Counted from the stretch's first letter, positions 7,465 to 20,143 are shown. The stretch is 32,000 nt of DNA from Promethearchaeum syntrophicum (GCF_008000775.2 NZ_CP042905.2:4230001-4262000); one strand, 5' to 3'. Notes: generated by a model from the letters alone, not told the origin. Program-made: numbers and translations.

Positions 7465-9114
7465 TTAATCAAAATCTCTATCGCGCAATTTTCGGTGTAA
7501 GATTTTTCCCACATTAGTCTTAGGAAGTTCATCAAGAAATTCTATTTCGCGTGGAAATTTATAAGCAGCCATTTGTAATTTAGCCCATTCAATTATTTCA
7601 GATTCACTAATTTTTCCAACGAATTGGGGATGTAATGCAATAAAAGCTTTAATATTTTCTCCTCCAGTTTTCGGATCTAGAATTCCGATAACGCCACATT
7701 CCAAGATCGCTTCATGTTCAAGAAGAAATGCCTCAATTTCATCGGGATAAACTGAATGACCTTTATATTTTATTAAATTCTTCAATCTTGACACGATCTT
7801 AGTATACCCTTCCGAATCCATCAATGCGCCATCACCCGTATAAAGCCAACCATCTCGAATAGTTTGTTTATTTACTTCATCTTTTTTGTAATACCCTTTC
7901 ATAATCTGAGGACCTTTAACGCAGAGCTCTCCCACTTCATTAATTTGTAACATTTTAGTTCCAGTTTCAATGTCAACAATTTTCATATCAGTATTTGGGA
8001 ATGGTAGACCTACAGTTCCATTTTTAAATCGGCCATCAAGAGGGTTTGCATGTGTAACAGGACTTGCTTCTGTTAATCCGAAGCCTTCTCGGAGTTTTGC
8101 TCCAGTTAACTCTTCAAATTTATCTTGGATTTCTTTCGGTAATGGTCCAGCTCCAGAAATACAATATTTAAGAGAGGAAAGATTAAAATCTTTTACCTTG
8201 GGAAATTGATTGATATTATTATACATTGCAGCCACTCCGGGGAATAATGTGACTTTATGTTTTGTAATTTCTTCAAGTAGTTCTTCGGCATCTCTAGGAT
8301 TAGCGACGAGAATTTGATTAGCTGCAAGTCTTACTGCTAAGTTCATGCAGAGTTGTTGTGCGTAAATATGATATAAAGGCAATGCGGTTAACATGACTTC
8401 TTTGCCCATTTGAGATTCTGTGAACCAAACTTTGCCTTGTTCAACATTAGCGACTAGATTTTTATGAGTTAACATTGCACCTTTTGGCAAGCCTGTCGTA
8501 CCACCAGTGTATTGAAGACAAGCGATATCATTTTCAGGATCAATTTTTACTTTTGGAGGATTAGGTGCAGTTTTTGGAATGATATCTTCAAGAAAAATTG
8601 TTTTTCCATCTTCGGATATTGGATCTCCTGGTAATGTTGGATCAGGGGAAAACCATGCACCTAAAGAACTGTAAATAACTTTTTCCACGCATGTTTCTGG
8701 GATAACTGGATCTACAATTTGATTAAAACCCTCCCAAACAATAAGAACCTTAGTTTCTGAATCATTTAATTGATGTTTGATTTCGAGCGCGAGGAAGAGA
8801 GGGGATAAAAGAGTTACTCGAGCTCCAATTCTTAAGACCGCATAATAACATGCAATACAAGGGGGAACATTTGAAAAATGTAAAGCAACAGTATCATTTT
8901 TTTTTATCCCCAGATCATTTGCCAAATAGGTAGCTATCCTATCTACAATTTCATCAAGGGTCTTGTAATTTAATTGATTTCCAAAATATGTGGTAGCGAT
9001 TGCATCCGGATAATTTAATGCTGCATTTCTTAGGTTAATATCAAGTGAAATATTTGGGATTTCTATTATTTTAGGAATATTTTCAGGATAAAATTTGTGG
9101 TAAAGCTTCGACAT
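7465..9114 (-). CDS. long/medium-chain acyl-CoA synthetase (AMP-forming, ANL superfamily)
   Basis: AMP-binding motif YTGGTTGLPKGAMLTH, YRTGD-like WLYTGDGA, and the C-terminal A10 lysine in PKTNVGKILHRKL. Confidence 0.9.
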   Translation of the reverse strand: MSKLYHKFYPENIPKIIEIPNISLDINLRNAALNYPDAIATTYFGNQLNYKTLDEIVDRIATYLANDLGIKKNDTVALHFSNVPPCIACYYAVLRIGARVTLLSPLFLALEIKHQLNDSETKVLIVWEGFNQIVDPVIPETCVEKVIYSSLGAWFSPDPTLPGDPISEDGKTIFLEDIIPKTAPNPPKVKIDPENDIACLQYTGGTTGLPKGAMLTHKNLVANVEQGKVWFTESQMGKEVMLTALPLYHIYAQQLCMNLAVRLAANQILVANPRDAEELLEEITKHKVTLFPGVAAMYNNINQFPKVKDFNLSSLKYCISGAGPLPKEIQDKFEELTGAKLREGFGLTEASPVTHANPLDGRFKNGTVGLPFPNTDMKIVDIETGTKMLQINEVGELCVKGPQIMKGYYKKDEVNKQTIRDGWLYTGDGALMDSEGYTKIVSRLKNLIKYKGHSVYPDEIEAFLLEHEAILECGVIGILDPKTGGENIKAFIALHPQFVGKISESEIIEWAKLQMAAYKFPREIEFLDELPKTNVGKILHRKLRDRDFD

Positions 9115-9171
9115 ACTTTTCTATCTGTCATCGAAATTTAAAAAATGGATCATCAGAAGTAAAAAAAAAAA

Positions 9172-11040
9172 TTAAAAATTCGCATATTTCGTTAAACTAA
9201 GACGTTCAAGTTTTTCCGGAGATGGCATTCCAGTAATTGGATCCCAATCTTCATATTTATAAAACTCAGAGAAGAGCAATTCTTGGTCTGGAACTTTTCC
9301 TTCTGTTACCCCTTCTATTGGAGTTACTAAAATTTTAGGCAGTTTTTCATCTTTTGGAGAATGTCCCATTTTTAAATTGAACAAACGCTTTAACGATAAG
9401 ACTCTTTCTCCCGTAATCTTGATTCTTTCTACGTCATATGGCATTCCAGTGCCTAATTCGATAAGTTTTGCAAGGTTGCTGGCCGCTGGTTTAGCAAATA
9501 CACACATGTTGATTGAGGAAAAGAAAGCGCGATATTCCATAAGGCGTGCAGAATGTTTTGACATTTCTGAGCTATTTTCTAAAGCAGGGATCGATTGAAT
9601 GTCCATTTCAGAATGGGCTTGACCTAAGCTTGTTTGATACATGTCGCACGAACAATGACTTGCCCCATAATGAGGTGCAATTCCATATGCCATCGACATC
9701 CCAAAAGAAGAACGCGTATCATGGTAGGGTGGCTCAATATGTCGAATCGTAGCAATTTGTTCAGGATCGACATTAAAATGCTTTCCAACCGCATCAGATC
9801 CATCAGCCAATACATCTCCTATTCCTGATCGATTCGCAATTTTATTCAGTAACTGATAGACATTTTCCATATTACCCCATTCCATATTTAATCCATCGAC
9901 ATCTGAAGCAGTGATTGTTTTTCCATTATTATATAAATCCATAATCAAAGAGATCACGGAACTGGATGAAATGGTGTCAATTCCCAAATCATTGCACATA
10001 TAATTCGCTTTTATTATAGATTCCAAATTAGAATTCCCCAACATCGCTCCAAAACCGGCTATAGTTTCATATTCAGGTCCTTCAAATTGTCCTTCCGGAA
10101 CTTCTAAATCATTTTTTCCAAGTTCAATTATACGTCCACAACCAATCGGACATGCAAAGCAGTAGCGTTGTTTCTTCAGATATTTTTCTGCAATTGTAGC
10201 TCCTGATATATTATCTACTTCTTCAAACTTTGAGGTTCTATAATATTTTACTGGTAATTCTCCGGTAAGAGTATACATATTTATACCACCAGAAGTTCCT
10301 AATGCACCAAACATTTGTGCAGTAAAAACAGCTAATTGGGCTGTATTCACTTCTTTTACTAGTGCTTTGAATTCATCTGGGGATGCTAATTCTATTTTAT
10401 TTGAACCTTTAATAACGACCGCTTTTAGCTTTTTTGATCCCATCACGGCTCCAAGCCCTGTACGACCAAAAGCTCTCTCTTCACATCCTATTATTGAATA
10501 TTTGACTAAATTCTCTCCCGCTTGGCCAATAGCCATCACTTTTCCTAACTTAAATTCTTCCGGGGTTTTTAAAATTTTCGTGGTTTCTTCAATGCCTTTA
10601 CCCCATAATTGAGATGCATCTTTAATCTCCGCTTTTCCATCTAGAATTTCCAAATAAACAGGTTGGTCCGATGCACCATGAACCAAGATGCCATCATACC
10701 CAGCTCTTTTCATTTGTACCCCAATTTGTCCCCCAGTATTTGATTCAGCCCAAATGCCTGAAAGAGGTGATTTAGAACAAGCAACAACACGCCCAGTACA
10801 TATTCCTTTTGAACCAAGCAATGGTCCACTCATAAGAAATATAACGTTTTCCGGACCTAATGGATCTGTGTCTTTATTAATTTTAGATATCAAGCTAGCA
10901 CATGCATATCCTGCACCCCCCACAAAGAGTTCGGCAAGATTTTCATCTAATGGCGTAGTTTTGATTGTTTTAGTAGATAAATCAATTTCAAGAATTTTTC
11001 CCGTATATCCTTTCAAATTCGACATAATTTTTTTCTCCAT
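9172..11040 (-). CDS. aor: tungsten-type aldehyde:ferredoxin oxidoreductase
   Basis: N-terminal GYTGKILEIDLS, the [4Fe-4S] motif CFACPIGCGR, and the pterin-type motif CNDLGIDT. 622 aa. An alternative start at ATG 11025 has GGAGA 8 nt upstream. Confidence 0.9.
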   Translation of the reverse strand: MEKKIMSNLKGYTGKILEIDLSTKTIKTTPLDENLAELFVGGAGYACASLISKINKDTDPLGPENVIFLMSGPLLGSKGICTGRVVACSKSPLSGIWAESNTGGQIGVQMKRAGYDGILVHGASDQPVYLEILDGKAEIKDASQLWGKGIEETTKILKTPEEFKLGKVMAIGQAGENLVKYSIIGCEERAFGRTGLGAVMGSKKLKAVVIKGSNKIELASPDEFKALVKEVNTAQLAVFTAQMFGALGTSGGINMYTLTGELPVKYYRTSKFEEVDNISGATIAEKYLKKQRYCFACPIGCGRIIELGKNDLEVPEGQFEGPEYETIAGFGAMLGNSNLESIIKANYMCNDLGIDTISSSSVISLIMDLYNNGKTITASDVDGLNMEWGNMENVYQLLNKIANRSGIGDVLADGSDAVGKHFNVDPEQIATIRHIEPPYHDTRSSFGMSMAYGIAPHYGASHCSCDMYQTSLGQAHSEMDIQSIPALENSSEMSKHSARLMEYRAFFSSINMCVFAKPAASNLAKLIELGTGMPYDVERIKITGERVLSLKRLFNLKMGHSPKDEKLPKILVTPIEGVTEGKVPDQELLFSEFYKYEDWDPITGMPSPEKLERLSLTKYANF

Positions 11041-11071
11041 CTTTTAAATTTGATATTTTTAAAAAAAATCA

Positions 11072-11470
11072 TTATTGGTAAAGTAATAAATTAGCAATCA
11101 TAAGCAGGCTGAATAGATTTCGCCCCCCTTTTTTTAATTCCCATCGAAAATGTCCAAAATCATTCTTCGTTAAGGTCATCTTCATTAAAGAATAATTTCC
11201 TGCAGAATACCACATTAAATCTTCAGGTTTAGCTTGAATTTGAAAATCATAGTCATCAATTTCTTCGTTTTTTAAAGTATAGCCCCCATCTTTTAAAATA
11301 AGAGAAATGTAAAGAAATTCTGTGGGGTATACGTGTAATTTGAAGCTAACTTTAAGATCTTTTTGAAGTTTTTTCTTCCATTTTGGGATCTCTTTTTTTT
11401 CTTCAATCGCACAGCTCACAATCTGTTTGAAGCTGTTAGAAAGATTTTCTATTTCATTTTTTTCCATCAT
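11072..11470 (-). CDS. SCP2-like small lipid-binding-fold protein (tentative)
   Basis: 132 aa, 31 nt upstream of aor in the same orientation. The pattern ...DFQIQAKPEDLMWYSAGNYSLMKMTLTKN... resembles the SCP2 C-terminal half; the match is weak. Confidence 0.45.
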   Translation of the reverse strand: MMEKNEIENLSNSFKQIVSCAIEEKKEIPKWKKKLQKDLKVSFKLHVYPTEFLYISLILKDGGYTLKNEEIDDYDFQIQAKPEDLMWYSAGNYSLMKMTLTKNDFGHFRWELKKGGRNLFSLLMIANLLLYQ

Positions 11471-11602
11471 ATTCTATTTCATTTTCTATTTCTTTTTTTA
11501 TCCAAATAAATCTTATCAAGATAATTTCACTTCCTTACTATGGAAAATGACCTAAAACTTTATTTTATCTCGGAGAAATTTGAATTAGAGGTTTAATTAA
11601 AA

Positions 11603-12793
11603 ATGTGGTTTTTTGATTCACCGAAAATAATTTTCGGAGAAGATGCACTTTCCCATCTTGAACAAATTGAAGGAAAGAAATGCTTTATTGTAACCGATCT
11701 TGGAATAATTAAAGCGAAACTTTTAGATATTCTTACAGCGGTTTTGAAGGAAGCAGGAAAAGAATGGAAGGTATTTGATGAAGTAGAGTCAGATCCTAAA
11801 GAAGACACAATACTGAAGGGTGCAAAAATCTGCCAAGAATATAACCCAGATCTCATAATAGCATTAGGTGGTGGTTCTGCTATCGATGCAGCAAAAGGTA
11901 TCTGGATATTATATGAACGCCCTGAACTTCAAATTGATGATATGCACCCCTTTATCAAGCTTGGATTAGGTACCAAAGCAAAAATGATTGCTATACCCAC
12001 CACTAGTGGAACCGGTGCAGAAACAACTTGGGCAATTGTTATTACTCGAATAAGAGATGGAATCACTACTAAATTAGAACAAGCTAATCGAGAAGCAATT
12101 CCAACAATCGCTATTATAGACCCAATATTTACTAAAGATCTTCCAGCAAAATTAACCGCAGCTACTGCATTTGACGCGTTAGCTCACCTACTCGAAGGTT
12201 TGATTTCTGCTTGGAGAAATGATTTCAGTGATGGAATGTCTCTTAAAGCAATGGATCTGATTCGTACTTATCTTTATCGCGCATATAGCGACGGTCATGA
12301 TATGGAAGCAAGAGAGAAACTCCACAATGCTGCAACAATAGCAGGACTGGCTTTTGGAAATTCTCAAGCAATTATGGGGCATGCAATGGGGCATGTTTTA
12401 GGCGCAAATTTCCATATACATCATGGAATGGCAGTAGGACTCTTCTTACCTTATATTCTACAATATTGCATAAACGATCCAGATAATAATGAAACAAAGC
12501 TGATTCTTTCGAAATTCTCAAAAATGCAAGGAATTGCACTTTGGGCAGATTCTGATGATGTAGCGGTTCAAAAACTAATTCAAGATATAAAAAATATGCA
12601 GGAACAAGTTCATATTTCAAAATCTTTAAAAGAATTAGGGATTAAGAAAGAAGAATTTGAAGAAAAACTGGAATTAATGGGTAATCAATGCTTAGAATCC
12701 GCAAGTACAACGATGAGTCCTCGTTCTGCAACCTCTGATATATTCATGCGAATATTTAGCTATGCCTATGATGGAAAAGATATTGATTTCTAA
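11603..12793 (+). CDS. iron-containing (group III) alcohol dehydrogenase
   Basis: GGGSAIDAAKG and the metal-binding His cluster HAMGHVLGANFHIHHGMAV. 396 aa. Confidence 0.9.
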   Translation: MWFFDSPKIIFGEDALSHLEQIEGKKCFIVTDLGIIKAKLLDILTAVLKEAGKEWKVFDEVESDPKEDTILKGAKICQEYNPDLIIALGGGSAIDAAKGIWILYERPELQIDDMHPFIKLGLGTKAKMIAIPTTSGTGAETTWAIVITRIRDGITTKLEQANREAIPTIAIIDPIFTKDLPAKLTAATAFDALAHLLEGLISAWRNDFSDGMSLKAMDLIRTYLYRAYSDGHDMEAREKLHNAATIAGLAFGNSQAIMGHAMGHVLGANFHIHHGMAVGLFLPYILQYCINDPDNNETKLILSKFSKMQGIALWADSDDVAVQKLIQDIKNMQEQVHISKSLKELGIKKEEFEEKLELMGNQCLESASTTMSPRSATSDIFMRIFSYAYDGKDIDF

Positions 12794-12869
12794 TATTTTT
12801 ACATTAATTTTTTTTTAATAAGTAACGAAGCTTAAAAAAACAAAAACAATTTTAGAATAGTGAAATAAA

Positions 12870-13280
12870 ATGGGATTAAAATTTGGAACACAAGAATGGC
12901 TTGATGAATACAGAAAAGTATTGAATGAAAATAAAGCCTACGAAGATGCTGCAAAGACTTGGGAAGGGGATTTCATATTTATTGTTAAACCAAGTGGAGG
13001 ATTAGATCATGAACTTAGATTTTGGATTGATTTACATCATGGAAAAAGCCCTGGTGGTAAAATGCTTGCCCCAGGCGAGGAAAAAGAAGCAGCTTTCGTT
13101 TTTTCAGGACCATGGACAAATTTTCATAAATTAATTCAGAAGAAACTTGATCCAATTCAAGGTCTTATGCAGGGAAAATTTGCTTTAAAGGGCGATATGG
13201 GCAAAGTAATGAGAGCTGTACGTGCGGCTCAAGAGTTAGTTAACACGATTTTAATGATCGATACAGAAGTCTACGATTGA
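12870..13280 (+). CDS. SCP2 sterol/lipid-binding domain protein
   Basis: 136 aa. WTNFHKLIQKKLDPIQGLMQGKFALKGDMGKVMRAVRAAQEL matches the SCP2 C-terminal pattern. Confidence 0.7.
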   Translation: MGLKFGTQEWLDEYRKVLNENKAYEDAAKTWEGDFIFIVKPSGGLDHELRFWIDLHHGKSPGGKMLAPGEEKEAAFVFSGPWTNFHKLIQKKLDPIQGLMQGKFALKGDMGKVMRAVRAAQELVNTILMIDTEVYD

Positions 13281-13509
13281 ATACCATTTATACATATCAA
13301 ATTCAATTTTTTTCTATTTATTTCTGAGCTTTTATAATTTTCAAATCTTTTCAAAACCAAATTTTGCTGAAATAGATAAGAATAACATTTAAAATAATAA
13401 TTCTCATACTAGTTCTAAGTAGAAATTTAGGGAAAATATTCATACTTTATTGAAATATATAACGAATTTTCTTGTATTTCGATTGAGTTCAAATTAGGGA
13501 ACGTGTAAA

Positions 13510-14565
13510 ATGGTCACATCTCAAAAAATTAGGGTTGGAATTCCCAGAGCATTACTTTACTATAAATTTTTTCCAATGTGGACAACATTTTTTGAAGAAC
13601 TAGGAGCAGAAGTTATTGTTTCGCCCAAAACTACTAAAATTTTGAAAGATGTGGCAGTTAGTATAGCCCCTGATGAAGATTGCTATTCCTCAAAGCTCTA
13701 CTACGGTCATGTGATGGCGCTTAAGGATAAAGTTGATTGTTTTTTCATACCAAGATTCAGTAGTGGAGGTTTCGGGAAAGGACATGAGAAAAATGTAAGC
13801 TGTCCTAAATTTATAGGTTTGGCTGAAGTTCTTCGTTCGGTTTTTCCTGATTTACCGGAAATTATAATGCCATATTTCTCCACTGCAAAAAATAATCATG
13901 GAAAAATGAAATTTCTTAAATATTGTTTTTCTATCGGATCTAAATTCACTAGAAATCCATTCAGAATAAGAACTGCAATAAAAAAAGCATTAAAAGAACA
14001 AAAAGAGCATTATCAGCATATACAAATTAGTGTGGATGAACTTCAGAAGTGGGAACGTTCAGAAATAATATTAAATGAGATTCCAGATGTTGAAGAAGGA
14101 GATGTTCCATTAAAGGTTGCGATTGTAGGTCACTCATATGTACTCAATGATCCTTATCAATCAATAGGTATAATGAAGAAATTAACAAGTCATGGGGTTG
14201 ATTATATTACATCAGAGCAAATGCCACGTCGACTTGTTGAACAACAAATGGACTACCTTGAATCTAACATGTATTTCGAATATGAACGAGAAATAATCGG
14301 GACTGTTATGCATTTTCTGGAGAGTAAAACAATAGATGGGATATTGCATTTAATAATATTCTCATGTGGACCAGATTCTATTGGTGGAGAACTATGTTCT
14401 CGATTTTCTCGACGAAAACCGGAAGTACCATTATTACAATTAGTAATTGATGAGCACACAGGAGAAGCAGGATTAAATACAAGAATTGAAGCATTTATTG
14501 ATATGCTCAGAAGAAGAAAGATTATCAAAGAAAAAAAAATAAGGAGAAAAATTGAATGCCTATAA
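13510..14565 (+). CDS. 2-hydroxyacyl-CoA dehydratase-like subunit (activase-associated, uncharacterised clade)
   Basis: 351 aa. The C-terminal VIDEHTGEAGLNTRIEAFIDML is paralogous to the next gene. The stop overlaps the next start by 10 nt. Confidence 0.65.
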   Translation: MVTSQKIRVGIPRALLYYKFFPMWTTFFEELGAEVIVSPKTTKILKDVAVSIAPDEDCYSSKLYYGHVMALKDKVDCFFIPRFSSGGFGKGHEKNVSCPKFIGLAEVLRSVFPDLPEIIMPYFSTAKNNHGKMKFLKYCFSIGSKFTRNPFRIRTAIKKALKEQKEHYQHIQISVDELQKWERSEIILNEIPDVEEGDVPLKVAIVGHSYVLNDPYQSIGIMKKLTSHGVDYITSEQMPRRLVEQQMDYLESNMYFEYEREIIGTVMHFLESKTIDGILHLIIFSCGPDSIGGELCSRFSRRKPEVPLLQLVIDEHTGEAGLNTRIEAFIDMLRRRKIIKEKKIRRKIECL

Positions 14566-15704
14566 CATTTCCTCACTTCGGATCTTTAACTTATGTTTTT
14601 GAAACACTTTTACGGGAATTAGGTCAAGACGATCTGATTGTCCCAAATAAACCAAGCAAAAGAACAGCAGAATTAGGAACTAGATATTCGCCTGAATTTG
14701 TTTGCACCCCATTTAAAATTACTTTGGGAACGTTTATTGAATCATTAGAAAGAGGAGCCGATGTGTTGGGAATGGGAGGGTGCAATGCGTATTGTCGCTT
14801 TGGCTATTATTGGCCCGTTCAAAAGCTTATCTTGGAAGATTTGGGTTATGATTTTAGATTTATTGCCATAGATTATGAAGATCCAATGGCCATTTTACGC
14901 ACTTTAAAAAATGAAAGCGATGGGTATAGTTATTTACAAACCCTTAGGGCACTTCAAAAAACTTGGGTGAAAAATCGATTTACGGATTTAGTTGATAAAC
15001 TACTGTGTAAATATCGTGCAATAGAAAGTATAAAAGGTACAACGGATCGGGTTGCAGAAAAAGCCTTTAGAACCATTGTGGAAACAAAAGGAATGGTGAA
15101 TATCCGCAAGTTGAAAAAAACAATCCCGAAGATGTTTGAAAAGGAAATTGAAATCGATAAATCGCTGGATCCATTGAAAATTGCAATTATTGGAGAGATT
15201 TATGTTGTCTTCGAACCTGCATTGAATGTTGATGTTCATCGGAGGTTAAATGAGTTAGGAGTGATAGTTGAAACACCAGCCTCCTTAAGGAGATTTATCG
15301 ATATCGGCTATAAATTAAATCCATTCTTAAAATTACACCGTGAAGTTTCAGTGAAAATAGCAGAACCATATTTAGGATATCGGTGTGGGGGAGAAGCCCA
15401 GGAATCAATTGGGGATACAATTTATTATAAACGAAAAGGATGGGACGGAATGGTACATTTGTACCCTTTTACTTGTATGCCTGAGATCATTTCAAGGAGT
15501 ATATTACCGCAAATTAGCAAAGAGTACGATATGCCCGTTCTTTCCCTTGTAGTAGATGAGCAAACAGGGGAAGCGGGATTTCAAACCCGATTAGAAGCTT
15601 TTATTGATTTGCTTTACAGAAAACGAGAAAAAGATAGAGAAGGAAAAATAATTAAGTCTAGTTTGAAACAAAATTTAACCATTCAATCAGTATATGGAGG
15701 ATGA
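14556..15704 (+). CDS. 2-hydroxyacyl-CoA dehydratase-like subunit, paralog
   Basis: 382 aa. C-terminal VVDEQTGEAGFQTRLEAFIDLL. Conserved Cys-containing segments are EFVCTPFK, GGCNAYCRFG and PFTCMPE. An ATGA overlap links it to the activase gene. Confidence 0.65.
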   Translation: MPITFPHFGSLTYVFETLLRELGQDDLIVPNKPSKRTAELGTRYSPEFVCTPFKITLGTFIESLERGADVLGMGGCNAYCRFGYYWPVQKLILEDLGYDFRFIAIDYEDPMAILRTLKNESDGYSYLQTLRALQKTWVKNRFTDLVDKLLCKYRAIESIKGTTDRVAEKAFRTIVETKGMVNIRKLKKTIPKMFEKEIEIDKSLDPLKIAIIGEIYVVFEPALNVDVHRRLNELGVIVETPASLRRFIDIGYKLNPFLKLHREVSVKIAEPYLGYRCGGEAQESIGDTIYYKRKGWDGMVHLYPFTCMPEIISRSILPQISKEYDMPVLSLVVDEQTGEAGFQTRLEAFIDLLYRKREKDREGKIIKSSLKQNLTIQSVYGG

Positions 15705-16738
15705 AGCAAGTGGAATTCAATGGAAAACATTATTATCTGGGTGTTGATGTAGGTTCAATAAGCACTAACTTGGCCGTAATTAATGATGAAAGAGAAGTTA
15801 TAGAATCGGTATATATACGAACAGAAGGTAAACCCATCAAATCTATTCAACGAGGTATGGCAATTCTACGTGAAAAATTAGGAATAGATTTAAAAATTAC
15901 AGGAGCTGGAGCAACAGGAAGTGCACGGAAATTAACGGGGATGATAGTTGGAGCAGATATTGTTAAAAACGAAATCACCGCTCATTCACTGGCTTCATTA
16001 CATGAAAGAGATGATATCCAAACAATAATCGAAATTGGCGGTCAAGATAGTAAAATTATTATAATTCGAAATGGAGTTGCTATAGATTTTGCCATGAATA
16101 CTGTTTGTGCCGCGGGAACTGGATCATTTCTTGATACTCAGGCACGAAGATTGAAAATAAAAATTGAAGATTTTGGCGGAATTGCTTTAAAATCTCACAC
16201 AGCAGTTTCGATTGCAGGGAGATGCACTGTTTTTGCAGAAAGCGATATGATCCATAAACAACAGTTGGGACATCCACTTGAAGATATTCTTAAAGGTCTG
16301 TGTGAATCTATGGTTCGGAATTATCTTAATAATGTTGGAAAAGGAAAAGAAATTCTCCCCCCTATTATGTTTCAGGGAGGGGTTGCTGCAAATATTGGAA
16401 TTCGCGAGGCTTTTAAGAAATATTTAAAACACGATGTTTTCGTGCCTGAACACTATGATGTAATGGGAGCTATTGGTGCAGCGATATTGGCATTGGAAGA
16501 GATAGAAAGGCGACCACGCAAATCTTCATTTTATGGATGGAAAATCCCAGATATGACATTTAAAACAGTTGGTTTTGAATGTTCTGATTGTCCAAATGTT
16601 TGTGAAGTTGTTGAAATTCGAAAAAATGGAGATCTTTTGGCTCGATGGGGTTCAAAATGCGGTAAATGGGACGATTTAGCTATTGTTCACGAAGAAAAAT
16701 CCAGAACATTGGAGAATTTTATTGTGGGTTCAGATTAG
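15701..16738 (+). CDS. BadF/BadG/BcrA/BcrD (HgdC-type) ATPase, dehydratase/reductase activase
   Basis: Actin-fold phosphate-1 motif LGVDVGSISTNLAVI. Cluster-ligand contexts NTVCAAGTGSFLD and GRCTVFAESD. An extra C-terminal Cys module, CSDCPNVCEV...KCGKW. Confidence 0.85.
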   Translation: MKQVEFNGKHYYLGVDVGSISTNLAVINDEREVIESVYIRTEGKPIKSIQRGMAILREKLGIDLKITGAGATGSARKLTGMIVGADIVKNEITAHSLASLHERDDIQTIIEIGGQDSKIIIIRNGVAIDFAMNTVCAAGTGSFLDTQARRLKIKIEDFGGIALKSHTAVSIAGRCTVFAESDMIHKQQLGHPLEDILKGLCESMVRNYLNNVGKGKEILPPIMFQGGVAANIGIREAFKKYLKHDVFVPEHYDVMGAIGAAILALEEIERRPRKSSFYGWKIPDMTFKTVGFECSDCPNVCEVVEIRKNGDLLARWGSKCGKWDDLAIVHEEKSRTLENFIVGSD

Positions 16739-16805
16739 TTATTTTTTTTCTATTTGAAAAAGCATAAAATTTTGTTATATCCATCACTGATTTTATTGAG
16801 AATTA

Positions 16806-17693
16806 ATGACTGCAAACCATCAATTAGATTTAAAATCAGAAATTAAATCAATTCAGAAAAAGTATAAAATCATTGGGCGGGAAAAAGAACTTCTGCTTTT
16901 ACTTATAGCATTGAGAGCAAAAAAACATATTATTCTTGAAGGTAGTGTTGGAACTGGGAAGACCTATTTAGCGCGCGCGCTTTCACACTATTCAAATGCT
17001 AATTTTTATCGCGTAGATGGTTCTGAGGATGTTTTAAGCCATGTTTTAGTTGGTTATTTCGATCCCCCTGCAGTAATAAATAAAGGATATGTGGAAGATT
17101 CATTTATATACGGTCCATTATCCTTAGCCATGCAAAATGGAGGATGTTTATTCATTAATGAATTAAATAGGATCCCTGAAGGCACGCAAAATGTTTTATT
17201 ATCAGCTTTAGACGAACACGAATTAATTATACCTAAATTAAAAACCATATCAGCTAATAAAAAAAATGGTTTTATTACAATTGCAACGCAAAATCCTTCC
17301 GCTCATGTTGGCGTTTCTGCTTTGGGGGAGGCATTAAAAGATAGATTTGTTTGGGTTGAAATTGATTATCAATATGAACATGAAGAAATTGATATTGTAA
17401 AATTAAATTTGGATAATGAATTACCACACAGCAATTTAATCGCAACCATTGCCGTAAAAATAATTGATGCAACTCGGACCCATCCAGATTTCAGAAGAGG
17501 GGCATCAGTTCGAGGAGCAATTGATCTTGCACAATTAGCCCAAGCATATGAAAAACAACCCAGTGCAAGATTTTGGCAAGATTCTGCAATCATGGCACTT
17601 CATTCAAAGGTAGAACTAACTGACGGGACCGATAGAAATATTCGAGAGATTTTAATTGAAATTGTAAATGAAATTTTTGAAAATTTTCAATAA
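16806..17693 (+). CDS. MoxR-family AAA+ ATPase
   Basis: Walker A GSVGTGKT, a Walker B/sensor region LFINELNRIPEGTQNVLLSALDEHE, and ATQNP. 295 aa. Confidence 0.85.
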   Translation: MTANHQLDLKSEIKSIQKKYKIIGREKELLLLLIALRAKKHIILEGSVGTGKTYLARALSHYSNANFYRVDGSEDVLSHVLVGYFDPPAVINKGYVEDSFIYGPLSLAMQNGGCLFINELNRIPEGTQNVLLSALDEHELIIPKLKTISANKKNGFITIATQNPSAHVGVSALGEALKDRFVWVEIDYQYEHEEIDIVKLNLDNELPHSNLIATIAVKIIDATRTHPDFRRGASVRGAIDLAQLAQAYEKQPSARFWQDSAIMALHSKVELTDGTDRNIREILIEIVNEIFENFQ

Positions 17694-17743
17694 CGGCTGA
17701 GAACACCGAAAGTTTAGAACCCGATGAAGCCAAGAGTGAAAGA

Positions 17744-18811
17744 TTGAGATTTTCAAATCTCACAGCAACCGATCTTCTAAAATATGAGATTTTACAAAAG
17801 AGAGTCAATAAGAGAAAATATTCTAAATTAGCGAAGGATATTGGATTTAATGAAATTAAAAGTATGACGGGTTTGTCGATCAGAGAAGGAAATATTGAAG
17901 CCTTAATGGGAATGGCTCAATCAAATATATATGCGGTAACTGCAGAGCTCCAGAAATCAGAATACAATCAATTTTTCTCCCAAAAATTTAAAAACAGACA
18001 AGATTCTTTCATTCCTTTTTTGTATTTCATGGTTAGACCACATGCACCTCGATCTTTTAAAATTATGCTCCAAAAACTAACCCGATCAATAATTCTGAGA
18101 CACTCACTTAATATTTCCGGAAGAGGCTCTTATGGAAAAGCCCGTCATCGTATAAAATTTTATCCAGGAATCCAAGAATTTGATTTAGATCAGACCTTGT
18201 TTAATTATCTCCAAAATGGAAACAAAATTCTCAGATTTTCTGATATTATTGGTATAGAAAGAAGGCAAAGGAAACGAAGTGTTGTTCTAATACTTGATAC
18301 TTCAGGTTCCATGTTTGGAAAGTTACTTCTAAATGCTGCTTTAACGACCTCAGTTCTAACCTACGCCTTATCTAAAGATTTCACTTCAATTATACTATTT
18401 AATTCTAAATCCTTGGTTCTCAAAGAAATAAAAACACAGAATAATACAACTCGCTTAATCGACCAGATATTGGAAACGGAAGCAGTCGGGTTTACAAATA
18501 TATCATCGGGGTTAAAAAAAGGTCTAAAAGAGTTAAATAAAATAGAAAGTGTTAGAAAAAAAGTGGGGATTCTTATAACTGATGGTGACTTCAATCGGGG
18601 AAAGGACCCGGCAATGATTGCCACTAAATTTCCCAAACTTCACGTAATCAATATCCCTCCCGAATCTCAAAAAATAACATCGAAAAAGACTCAGTCTCGG
18701 GGTCAGCTTGTTTGTCAAAAAATCGCCCGAGCTGGTCGAGGCTATTATATTCCAGTAAAAAATTTCTCAGATATTCCACGAACTCTGATGAAATTGATTT
18801 CAAAGATCTAA
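17744..18811 (+). CDS. von Willebrand factor A (VWA) domain protein
   Basis: MIDAS motif VVLILDTSGSM, plus later GFTNISSGL and ILITDGDFN. The start is uncertain: TTG 17744 in the track, and the next in-frame ATG is 17864. Confidence 0.8.
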   Translation: MRFSNLTATDLLKYEILQKRVNKRKYSKLAKDIGFNEIKSMTGLSIREGNIEALMGMAQSNIYAVTAELQKSEYNQFFSQKFKNRQDSFIPFLYFMVRPHAPRSFKIMLQKLTRSIILRHSLNISGRGSYGKARHRIKFYPGIQEFDLDQTLFNYLQNGNKILRFSDIIGIERRQRKRSVVLILDTSGSMFGKLLLNAALTTSVLTYALSKDFTSIILFNSKSLVLKEIKTQNNTTRLIDQILETEAVGFTNISSGLKKGLKELNKIESVRKKVGILITDGDFNRGKDPAMIATKFPKLHVINIPPESQKITSKKTQSRGQLVCQKIARAGRGYYIPVKNFSDIPRTLMKLISKI

Positions 18812-19303: not shown

Positions 19304-20143
19304 ATGGCAATAAACTCGAATAATAAAAAAAATAAAGAAAACCCCCTCTTTAAACCGCGATATCTTGATGCTAAAGATAAAAAAAATGCAAAAATTGCCT
19401 TTACACTCTGTATTGTTGGTATTTTGGCTTTTTTATTTCAAATGCTTTATTTTGTAGTGCGATATAAAGGATTTGATGATTGGTTAATTGTGTTAACTTT
19501 CTGGATAGTTTTTATTATGCCCGGATATATTGCTGATGCTATGATGGTCCTTGTTGGGGGCGGGGGACCGTTAGATGGAGGAAAAATTGCGAAAGATGGA
19601 AGAAGATTGTTTGGATCTGGAAAAACTAAAAGAGGTTTTTTCTTAGGTCCATTGATTGGGGGTATTATTGCATTAATCATTCACGGAATATTATTTTGGC
19701 AGTGGGAAAATATTACTGCTCTTATTATAAGCTTTACAGAAAACCCCGATATCTACTATCACTTTTATGAGAATAATGCGGAGAATTTGATCAAAGATTT
19801 TTCAATATTTTTATTGGGTAATTCATCAGGGGATACAACATTTTTAGGTTTTTTAAATTTAATTCCCCGAGTATTTTTATGTGCCTATGGAACTGCTTTT
19901 GGTGATCTTGCTGGATCTTGGGCAAAAAGACGAAAGAATATTGCTTCAGGACAACCTTTTTGGATAGTAGATCAAATCGATTTCTTAGGTGGATGTCTTT
20001 TATTCGCAGGATGGTTTGTGTTTATTCCACCAGCGATTTATACAATCCATGTTTTAATTATGCTCCTTATTATTACCCCAAGTCTTGCTTTAATATCTAA
20101 TTCAATTTCATTTCTTACTGGCGGTAAGTCAGTCCCATGGTAA
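19304..20143 (+). CDS. carS: CDP-archaeol synthase-like (DUF46/CarS family) membrane cytidylyltransferase
   Basis: GGGPLDGGKIAKDGRRLFGSGKTKRGFFLGPLIGG, GDLAGSWAKRRKNI and FWIVDQIDFLGG resemble CarS signature regions. At 279 aa it is longer than the CarS proteins I remember. Confidence 0.65.
   Translation: MAINSNNKKNKENPLFKPRYLDAKDKKNAKIAFTLCIVGILAFLFQMLYFVVRYKGFDDWLIVLTFWIVFIMPGYIADAMMVLVGGGGPLDGGKIAKDGRRLFGSGKTKRGFFLGPLIGGIIALIIHGILFWQWENITALIISFTENPDIYYHFYENNAENLIKDFSIFLLGNSSGDTTFLGFLNLIPRVFLCAYGTAFGDLAGSWAKRRKNIASGQPFWIVDQIDFLGGCLLFAGWFVFIPPAIYTIHVLIMLLIITPSLALISNSISFLTGGKSVPW

Follow-up and report, generated by a model that had tools for sequence, protein, structure and literature searches.

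We describe a conserved three-gene unit in a 32,000-nucleotide stretch of the Promethearchaeum syntrophicum genome (GCF_008000775.2 NZ_CP042905.2:4230001-4262000; hereafter the window, with positions counted from its first nucleotide). The unit, which we call the triad, probably encodes an enzyme of three subunits that carries out an ATP-driven radical or reductive reaction and belongs to the 'archerase' superfamily, which comprises benzoyl-CoA reductases (BCR), 2-hydroxyacyl-CoA dehydratases (HAD) and double-cubane cluster proteins (DCCP). It would belong to the DUF2229 branch of this superfamily, with the MoxR-VWA gene pair that follows it forming a separate system. The case is built on family assignments, orthology, cysteine conservation, fold, gene order and the lack of co-conservation with MoxR-VWA, all taken directly from the data presented here.

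A preliminary description of the region had placed five genes at 13510-18811, and all five open reading frames (ORFs) are found there on the plus strand of this AT-rich window (GC about 33%). Red1 and Red2 below refer to the two reductase modules of PlsA/PlsR-type enzymes.

13510-14565, plus strand: ORF1, 351 aa, Red1-type subunit with a full DUF2229 domain and an HGD-D-like C-terminus.
14556-15704, plus strand: ORF2, 382 aa, Red2-type subunit, a full-length paralog of ORF1 and counterpart of PlsR (Red2).
15701-16738, plus strand: ORF3, 345 aa (342 aa from the GTG at 15710), HgdC/BcrAD-type ASKHA ATPase (activase).
16580-16660, plus strand: C-terminal Cys4 module of ORF3, C294-x2-C297-x3-C301-x18-C320, a presumed metal- or Fe-S-binding mini-domain.
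16739-16805, plus strand: ORF3-ORF4 spacer, with a T8 run, the A/T-rich box AAAGCATAAAATTTTG and a TTGAG box, followed by the ATG of the MoxR gene.
16806-17693, plus strand: ORF4, MoxR-type AAA+ ATPase (AAA_5/AAA_3), a neighbour outside the triad unit.
17744-18811, plus strand: ORF5, VWA/MIDAS protein and partner of ORF4, likewise a neighbour outside the triad unit.

The junctions within the triad are short. ORF1 and ORF2 overlap by 10 nt, as first described: ORF2 starts with the ATG at 14556, which an AAGGAG box precedes by 10 nt, and ORF1 stops with a TAA whose last base is 14565. At the second junction the ATGA at 15701-15704, where ORF2 ends and an ATG could start ORF3, is indeed present, while the overlap read from it depends on the choice of start codon. 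The GTG at 15710, with 9 nt between it and the GGAGG at 15696-15700, has a more usual spacing than the ATG at 15701 and corresponds to the 342-aa product given by NCBI. Because the start of ORF3 is ambiguous, the two genes at this junction overlap by 4 nt or stand 5 nt apart, and ORF1 to ORF3 are tightly packed whichever start holds. The gaps of 67 nt between ORF3 and ORF4 and of 50 nt between ORF4 and ORF5 are as originally given. The closest named relatives are Promethearchaeum sp. metagenome-assembled genomes (MAGs), at 91-93% protein identity.

The triad recurs far beyond this genus. Loci were gathered by an alignment-based metagenome scan; an earlier scan of a genome collection with ORF1 peptide patterns gave 5. 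Among the 57 loci that hold all three genes, 55 keep them on the same strand in the order ORF1, ORF2, ORF3, with median intergenic gaps of 12 and 32 nt. These loci span 33% to 94% identity to ORF1 and a locus GC of 0.26-0.65, and their hosts include Asgard archaea and many anaerobic bacteria, for example Monoglobus. The triad is thus a conserved, self-contained unit whose recurrence lies well beyond chance, and the idea that its three genes belong together holds.

ORF3 is the most readily classified of the three products. It matches Pfam BcrAD_BadFG at 9e-46 and exceeds the cut-off of TIGR00241 (174.5 bits against 125.4), and its matches in the PDB include MbdQ (1.9e-35), HgdC (5.5e-35) and HadI (1.5e-33), in agreement with its initial assignment as an HgdC/BcrAD-type ATPase. 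The two putative cluster-bridging cysteines, C136 in NTVCAAGTG and C175 in GRCTVFAESD, are invariant in 53/53 homologs; invariance here and below was judged across 52-55 independent split triads. The additional cysteine module singled out in the preliminary description proved equally constant, with C294, C297, C301 and C320 present in 53/53 split-triad activases. HgdC and HadI, by contrast, lack this module.

ORF1 and ORF2 are more distant from classical enzymes. ORF1 covers positions 1-216 of the 218 in the Pfam DUF2229 profile (PF09989; 3.8e-47, 161.2 bits), and ORF2 gives a partial match to the same profile (34.4 bits, cut-off 29.4). HGD-D (PF06050) stays below its gathering score of 28.4 bits in both (ORF1 27.5, ORF2 26.5), and the similarity is limited to their C-terminal ~100 aa (profile positions ~240-342). 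The two proteins had been linked by a common C-terminal motif. The motif is there, and the paralogy spans their full length: BLASTP aligns ORF1 and ORF2 at 33% identity over 163 aa (E 5e-21), and hhalign aligns the two families over 314 columns (99.96% probability, E 6e-39). Each carries three invariant cysteines, C58, C98 and C286 in ORF1 (56/56 homologs) and C50, C80 and C307 in ORF2 (55/55).

An AlphaFold2 model of ORF1 (pLDDT 87, pTM 0.86) was compared with the PDB using Foldseek. All 20 best matches were HadBC, DCCP, BzdNO or MbdON (E 4e-9 to 9e-5, TM-score ~0.5, 11-14% identity), with HadB and HadC closest, so the predicted fold is that of the BCR/HAD/DCCP superfamily, distantly related. 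Taken with the cysteine pattern, this identifies ORF1 and ORF2 as paralogs of HAD/BCR/DCCP fold bearing putative Fe-S ligands. The earlier label 'dehydratase-like' therefore holds as regards the paralogy, the ligand cysteines and the fold. It does not hold as regards classical dehydratase subunits, since HGD-D is below its cut-off and DUF2229 takes its place.

Natural gene fusions bear on how the two subunits pair. Single-chain Red1-Red2 proteins of 670-770 aa (P0246, P0247, P0255, P0263 and P0292) combine an N-terminus of full DUF2229 plus HGD-D with an ORF2-like C-terminal half. By its domain content this architecture is intermediate between the three-gene form and the PlsA-type fusions of more than 1000 aa, and by Rosetta-stone logic its existence supports an ORF1/ORF2 heterodimer. 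The canonical dehydratases HgdAB and HadBC are likewise heterodimers of paralogous subunits, each with a three-cysteine cluster, as predicted for ORF1 and ORF2. They differ from the triad in that its N-terminal half is DUF2229, leaving only the C-terminal ~100 aa similar.

The structural matches also raise the question of whether ORF1 and ORF2 form a reductase akin to DCCP that has a double-cubane cluster, or another unusual one, and acts on small substrates (acetylene-type, N-oxide) instead of an acyl carbonyl. DCCP (6ENO, 7YYL) has the same fold and, with its activase DCCP-R, makes up a two-component, ATP-driven reductase. By sequence, DCCP is the closest PDB entry to ORF1 (E 0.006 with the single sequence, 1e-4 with the family profile); it also ranks among the top structural matches of the ORF1 model, and DCCP-R matches ORF3 at 1.6e-18. 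The sequence match is, however, confined to the last ~70 residues, and with the NCBIfam double_cubane model (NF040772) the score is 16.5 bits, far short of the 350-bit cut-off. DCCP is moreover a homodimer with six cysteines per subunit for its [8Fe-9S] cluster, whereas the triad has two different subunits with just three invariant cysteines each. PlsA/PlsR modules match with E-values tens of orders of magnitude lower, and we consider a DCCP-like function very improbable.

The relatives that do lie close are large fused proteins. These combine two BcrAD domains, DUF2229 and HGD-D pieces, and their characterised members are PlsA/PlsR, an anaerobic plasmalogen synthase, and Ger, a glycerol ester reductase (PMC13159169, PMC9702350, PMC12838417), so the view that fused proteins of more than 1000 aa have no known substrate is out of date. 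Heterologous expression showed that PlsA/PlsR and Ger convert the sn-1 ester to a vinyl or alkyl ether (PMC13159169, PMC9702350, PMC8788747, PMC12838417). A 'BBD' core of two tandem activase domains followed by DUF2229 has been described as conserved among all ether-lipid producers (PMC13159169).

We compared the triad with eight fused genes drawn from mislabelled 'plasmid' records and genome contigs, including a 1475-aa Listeria gene regarded in the literature as a plsA-plsR ortholog. The triad maps colinearly, module by module, onto all eight: ORF3 corresponds to Act1 and Act2, being nearer Act2 in every case, ORF1 to the middle Red1 and ORF2 to the C-terminal Red2. Profile comparison with hhalign gave E 3.6e-49 for ORF1 with fused Red1 and E 1.4e-22 over 329 columns for ORF2 with fused Red2; the cross pairs (split versus fused, Red1 versus Red2) reached 6e-8 and 1e-13. 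The ORF1-family profile reached only E 1e-4 with DCCP, as noted above, and E 0.28 with HadC. A neighbour-joining tree of the reductase modules, built with 7 fused Red1 and 4 fused Red2 sequences and leaving out Ger and the C. perfringens sequences, separated ORF1-type plus Red1 from ORF2-type plus Red2 with 100/100 bootstrap support. The three cysteine columns are homologous across ORF1, ORF2, Red1 and Red2 in 55/55 aligned sequences. These comparisons make ORF1 the ortholog of Red1 and ORF2 that of Red2, both being DUF2229 proteins, and PlsA/PlsR-type enzymes are the nearest characterised relatives of the triad by a wide margin. The tree bipartition and the matching-pair scores together place the Red1/Red2 duplication before the divergence of split and fused forms.

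The likeness to PlsA/PlsR (C. perfringens CPE1194/1195; single-gene fusions in Listeria, Enterococcus and Lactococcus) extends to all four module types, activase, Cys4, Red1 and Red2, with identical three-cysteine columns in both Red modules. The same CX2CX3CX18C spacing is found in 7/8 fused PlsA-type proteins, between Act2 and Red1; since 53/53 split activases also have it, the Cys4 module is a signature of the DUF2229 branch rather than something special to this locus. The differences lie in layout and host. The triad consists of three genes ordered Red1-Red2-Act with a single activase gene, whereas PlsA/PlsR is arranged Act1-Act2-Red1(-Red2) with two tandem activase domains. The host of the triad is an archaeon not known for plasmalogens. 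A 1282-aa fused variant on a Paraclostridium bifermentans plasmid (L014 3210-7058) has no Cys4 module, and its C-terminal region is without the Red2 cysteines, whereas those of Red1 are retained; it could represent a degenerate member of the family or one with another function.

Ger (T. maritima Tmari_0479; D. alkenivorans SHJ90043), which we compared by architecture and through PlsA-type proxies only, shares PF01869, PF09989 and PF06050 in a BBD(H...) architecture (PMC13159169) as well as a strictly anaerobic chemistry, and differs from the triad in being one polypeptide of ~1400 aa. Ger homologs have been reported in Lokiarchaeota (including Prometheoarchaeum) and Heimdallarchaeota (PMC13159169). 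The published matches need not be triad genes; the survey required at least 30% query coverage, which is beyond the reach of a 345-385-aa protein.

The split form appears to be a large group in its own right. A sensitive search with ORF2 returned 2097 cluster representatives at 50% identity, mostly of ~360 aa, and no protein above 1000 aa was present among the best 150 ORF2 relatives. By sequence, the split three-gene form is a distinct group, separate from the fused clade. Its two paralogs are closer to each other (at the E-value of 6e-39 given above) than fused Red1 is to Red2 (E 3e-4), and this much smaller divergence suggests that the split form is nearer the ancestral state.

The preliminary description had joined the triad to ORF4 and ORF5 in a five-gene module in which the MoxR-VWA pair would be the ORF1/ORF2 enzyme's own chaperone for cofactor insertion or remodelling. 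The nature of the two proteins was correctly recognised. ORF4 matches AAA_5 (1e-19), AAA_3 (2e-16) and a GvpN-like family (4e-20), and ORF5 matches the Pfam families VWA_CoxE, VWA_2 and VWA and has an intact MIDAS (DTSGS at 185, the T in GFTNI at 249 and the D in ITDGD at 278). In these domains, in their adjacency and in their co-conservation they resemble CoxD/CoxE, NorQ/NorD, CbbQ/CbbO and GvpN. MoxR-VWA pairs mature metalloenzymes, as in CoxD/E, NorQ/D and CbbQ/O, and here the pair lies on the same strand as the triad, behind short gaps, in an arrangement kept in a congeneric locus (L009).

The wider distribution of the pair speaks against such a module. Of the 41 ordered triads whose downstream sequence extends for 2.5 kb or more, only one is followed by MoxR-VWA, and that one is the congeneric L009, at 91% identity. 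Conversely, MoxR orthologs of 54-73% identity occur in six other Asgard loci outside the genus (L096-L101), always followed by a co-conserved VWA gene (44-68% identity) and never accompanied by the triad. L. ossiferum carries both units at separate places in its genome. MoxR-VWA and the triad are therefore not co-conserved across genomes, the very outcome that the preliminary description had named as refuting its module, and we regard a five-gene module as hardly tenable.

Comparison with L097, a locus from a Promethearchaeota MAG, accounts for the present arrangement. L097 is colinear with the window through Zn-ribbon, GalT, hyp375, MoxR, VWA, CarS, ZPR1 and POR gamma-delta-alpha-beta genes, and its MoxR gene directly follows the hyp375 homolog. 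In the window, a 9.3-kb block (7465-16738) lies between hyp375 and MoxR, ending with the triad; it is absent from L097 (4214-6668), and MTHFR and DUF5981 genes stand at its position in L098 and L096. The triad and MoxR-VWA thus adjoin each other because of this Promethearchaeum-specific block, through a local rearrangement. The genes that precede the triad in it, each with Pfam and NCBIfam matches, are as follows.

7465-9114, minus strand: acyl-CoA ligase.
9172-11040, minus strand: aldehyde:ferredoxin oxidoreductase (AOR).
11072-11470, minus strand: SCP2.
11603-12793, plus strand: Fe-alcohol dehydrogenase (ADH).
12870-13280, plus strand: SCP2, second copy.

Signals upstream of the pair tell the same story. 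Elements resembling AAAATTTTTG, together with TTGAG, precede MoxR both in loci that have the triad and in loci that lack it. On this comparative evidence, MoxR-VWA is a separate conserved Asgard gene pair with upstream signals of its own. The T8 run right after the ORF3 stop is at best a doubtful terminator, because it is not positionally conserved in L009; oligo-T runs also follow several other genes of the window. A scan for bacterial-type promoters and terminators is inappropriate for an archaeon.

Other contexts indicate that the client of MoxR-VWA is not the triad. In three distant Asgard loci (L099 1-8988, L100 1-8985 and L101 1-8988) the orthologous pair directly follows genes for molybdenum-cofactor biosynthesis instead, namely MoaA, MoaD, MoaE, two MoeA and a MogA-like gene, and an AOR gene lies within 7 kb of MoxR-VWA in the window, in L096 (1-318) and in L099. 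By analogy with CoxD/CoxE this hints at a Mo/W-pterin enzyme as the client, a lead rather than a finding. ORF4 itself departs from canonical MoxR proteins. Its Walker A is GSVGTGKT, and in its Walker B (LFINE; residues 115-121, window 17150-17170) N118 replaces the canonical Asp of hhhhDE, in 120/120 orthologs, a conserved deviation of this Asgard subfamily. Eukaryotic Midasin gave the top PDB matches for ORF4 (E 3e-30), an identity that we rejected as an artefact because the score sums 6-8 repeated AAA domains of ~30 bits each, less than the 46.5 bits of the single-domain bacterial MoxR 2r44.

Some further features of the window and its relatives were recorded. A CarS-like CDP-archaeol synthase gene lies at 19304-20143, 2.6 kb downstream of the triad. 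It belongs to the backbone, since in L097 it likewise comes after MoxR-VWA, and in L096 it is again downstream of the pair. In L107, a short CarS-like/CTP_transf_1 gene precedes a Red1-Red2 pair by 3 kb. An Rfam scan of the whole window returned no family at gathering score. The GC-rich stretch at 27.3-28.8 kb was considered as a possible RNA gene and ruled out; an IS110-family transposase (519 aa) at 27271-28830 explains the local rise in GC to 0.42-0.49.

From the established behaviour of HgdC-type systems and the conserved ligand pattern, we infer a mechanism for the triad, and with it the types of cluster, the subunit stoichiometry of homodimer and heterodimer, the electron donor, the chemistry and the substrate. 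ORF3 would form a homodimer with one [4Fe-4S] cluster bridged by C136 and C175 of both chains, and would be reduced by ferredoxin, for which the AOR of the block and a 2-oxoacid:ferredoxin oxidoreductase 2.4 kb downstream are plausible suppliers. ATP hydrolysis by ORF3 would then drive a low-potential electron into the ORF1/ORF2 heterodimer, in which each subunit may hold a three-cysteine [4Fe-4S] cluster with one open iron. The Cys4 module of ORF3 could provide an extra metal site, either a relay cluster or a structural Zn at the docking surface. The heterodimer is predicted to reduce, and probably dehydrate, an acyl carbonyl through a ketyl-type intermediate.

As to the substrate, the likeliest class may be the ester-linked acyl chain of a lipid, converted to a vinyl or alkyl ether, an assignment we make tentatively and with less than even confidence. 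It is favoured by the orthology to PlsA/PlsR, by the genes of the 9.3-kb block, by the nearby CarS-like gene and by the surroundings of bacterial triads. The block has a lipid flavour, with a long-chain-type acyl-CoA ligase, two SCP2 genes, AOR and ADH. Some bacterial triads have similarly lipid-flavoured neighbours (PlsX, YceD, PLD), and many sit among housekeeping genes (NusA, L9, L25, PlsX, Trx).

A census of triad neighbours, covering the 25 commonest Pfam families on each side (181 flanking genes, 45 or more loci), found no single consistent partner pathway. Two bacterial contexts recur, M20 peptidase-triad-PlsX-thioredoxin and M20 peptidase-triad-TrxB-like flavoprotein (L055 7197-12733; downstream genes in L061, L071 and L093). 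Such M20/Trx-type contexts may point to how the split enzyme receives its electrons or to the pathway it serves.

Several observations weigh against a lipid ester. The lipid-type companions of the window triad are conserved only within the genus (congeneric L008 and L009). The cultured Promethearchaeum strain reportedly has ordinary isoprenoid ether lipids, and should that hold, an ester-lipid substrate is not evident. Identity between split and fused forms is only ~22% for Red1 and 19-20% for Red2, and the fused Red1 and Red2 modules form long-branched clades of their own that exclude the split forms (98% and 100% bootstrap); with such low identity and a place outside the fused clade, the function of the split form may have diverged. 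Literature searches yielded no functional study of the split triad. An M20 peptidase gene lies upstream of the triad in 10 bacterial loci, directly preceding it, and other neighbours of amino-acid type are PALP, decarboxylase and asparaginase genes. In a Heimdall-group MAG (GCA_013166775.1) two Red1-Red2 pairs (L106 5580-9086 and L107 5774-9084), neither with an adjacent activase, each stand beside a class I/II aminotransferase gene. L006 (6751-12173) holds four Red-like genes followed by a single activase, and such paralog expansions, in L006 as in L106/L107, suggest several substrates.

These contexts would suit an enzyme in the reductive branch of peptide and amino-acid fermentation, a dehydratase or reductase that acts by the ATP-driven ketyl mechanism of 2-hydroxyacyl-CoA dehydratases on an amino-acid-derived CoA thioester or on a 2-hydroxy or 2-oxo acid derivative, and not on lipids. 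The fold and the activase are those of HAD enzymes. Besides the peptidase, aminotransferase and paralog-expansion contexts just described, M1 peptidase, OCD, PALP, Orn/Arg decarboxylase and asparaginase genes, and DapF with LL-DAP aminotransferase, occur near triads, and the acyl-CoA ligase, AOR and ADH of the block would also suit amino-acid-derived aldehydes and acids. Against this, HGD-D similarity is below cut-off and restricted to the C-terminus, and at profile level PlsA/PlsR modules are much nearer relatives than HadBC or DCCP. CoA-transferase and 2-hydroxyacid dehydrogenase genes, which accompany canonical 2-hydroxyacyl-CoA dehydratases, are missing from the 25 commonest neighbour families on either side and from the window. 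Many bacterial triads, moreover, have the housekeeping surroundings noted above and are not set in catabolic islands. We consider an amino-acid-derived substrate unlikely, yet the main alternative to the lipid ester.

The lipid-ester assignment can be carried one step further. The triad could be an ancestral-type acyl-ester reductase, with which an Asgard archaeon turns ester-linked fatty-acyl lipids into vinyl or alkyl ethers. The split form would then be the older one, and PlsA/PlsR and Ger would have arisen from it by gene fusion. We offer this as a speculative extension that is, on balance, rather improbable.

To our knowledge, PlsA/PlsR and Ger represent the sole known anaerobic route from ester to ether lipids, and they figure in the debate on the lipid divide between bacteria and archaea and on the membrane transition in eukaryogenesis. 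What is new here is a large, separate three-gene split form with the same cofactor-ligand blueprint, common in Asgard archaea and anaerobic bacteria. Setting MoxR-VWA outside the triad system removes a false lead. If the split triad reduces lipid esters, Asgard archaea own a bacterial-type ether-lipid tool, and if it is indeed an ancestral-type ester reductase, a bacterial-type ether-lipid route would exist in the archaeal lineage closest to eukaryotes. If it is not a lipid-ester reductase, homology surveys that count archaeal Ger homologs over-read a family of other function. As a cultured Asgard genus, Promethearchaeum offers a directly testable case for claims about archaeal ether lipids of this kind.

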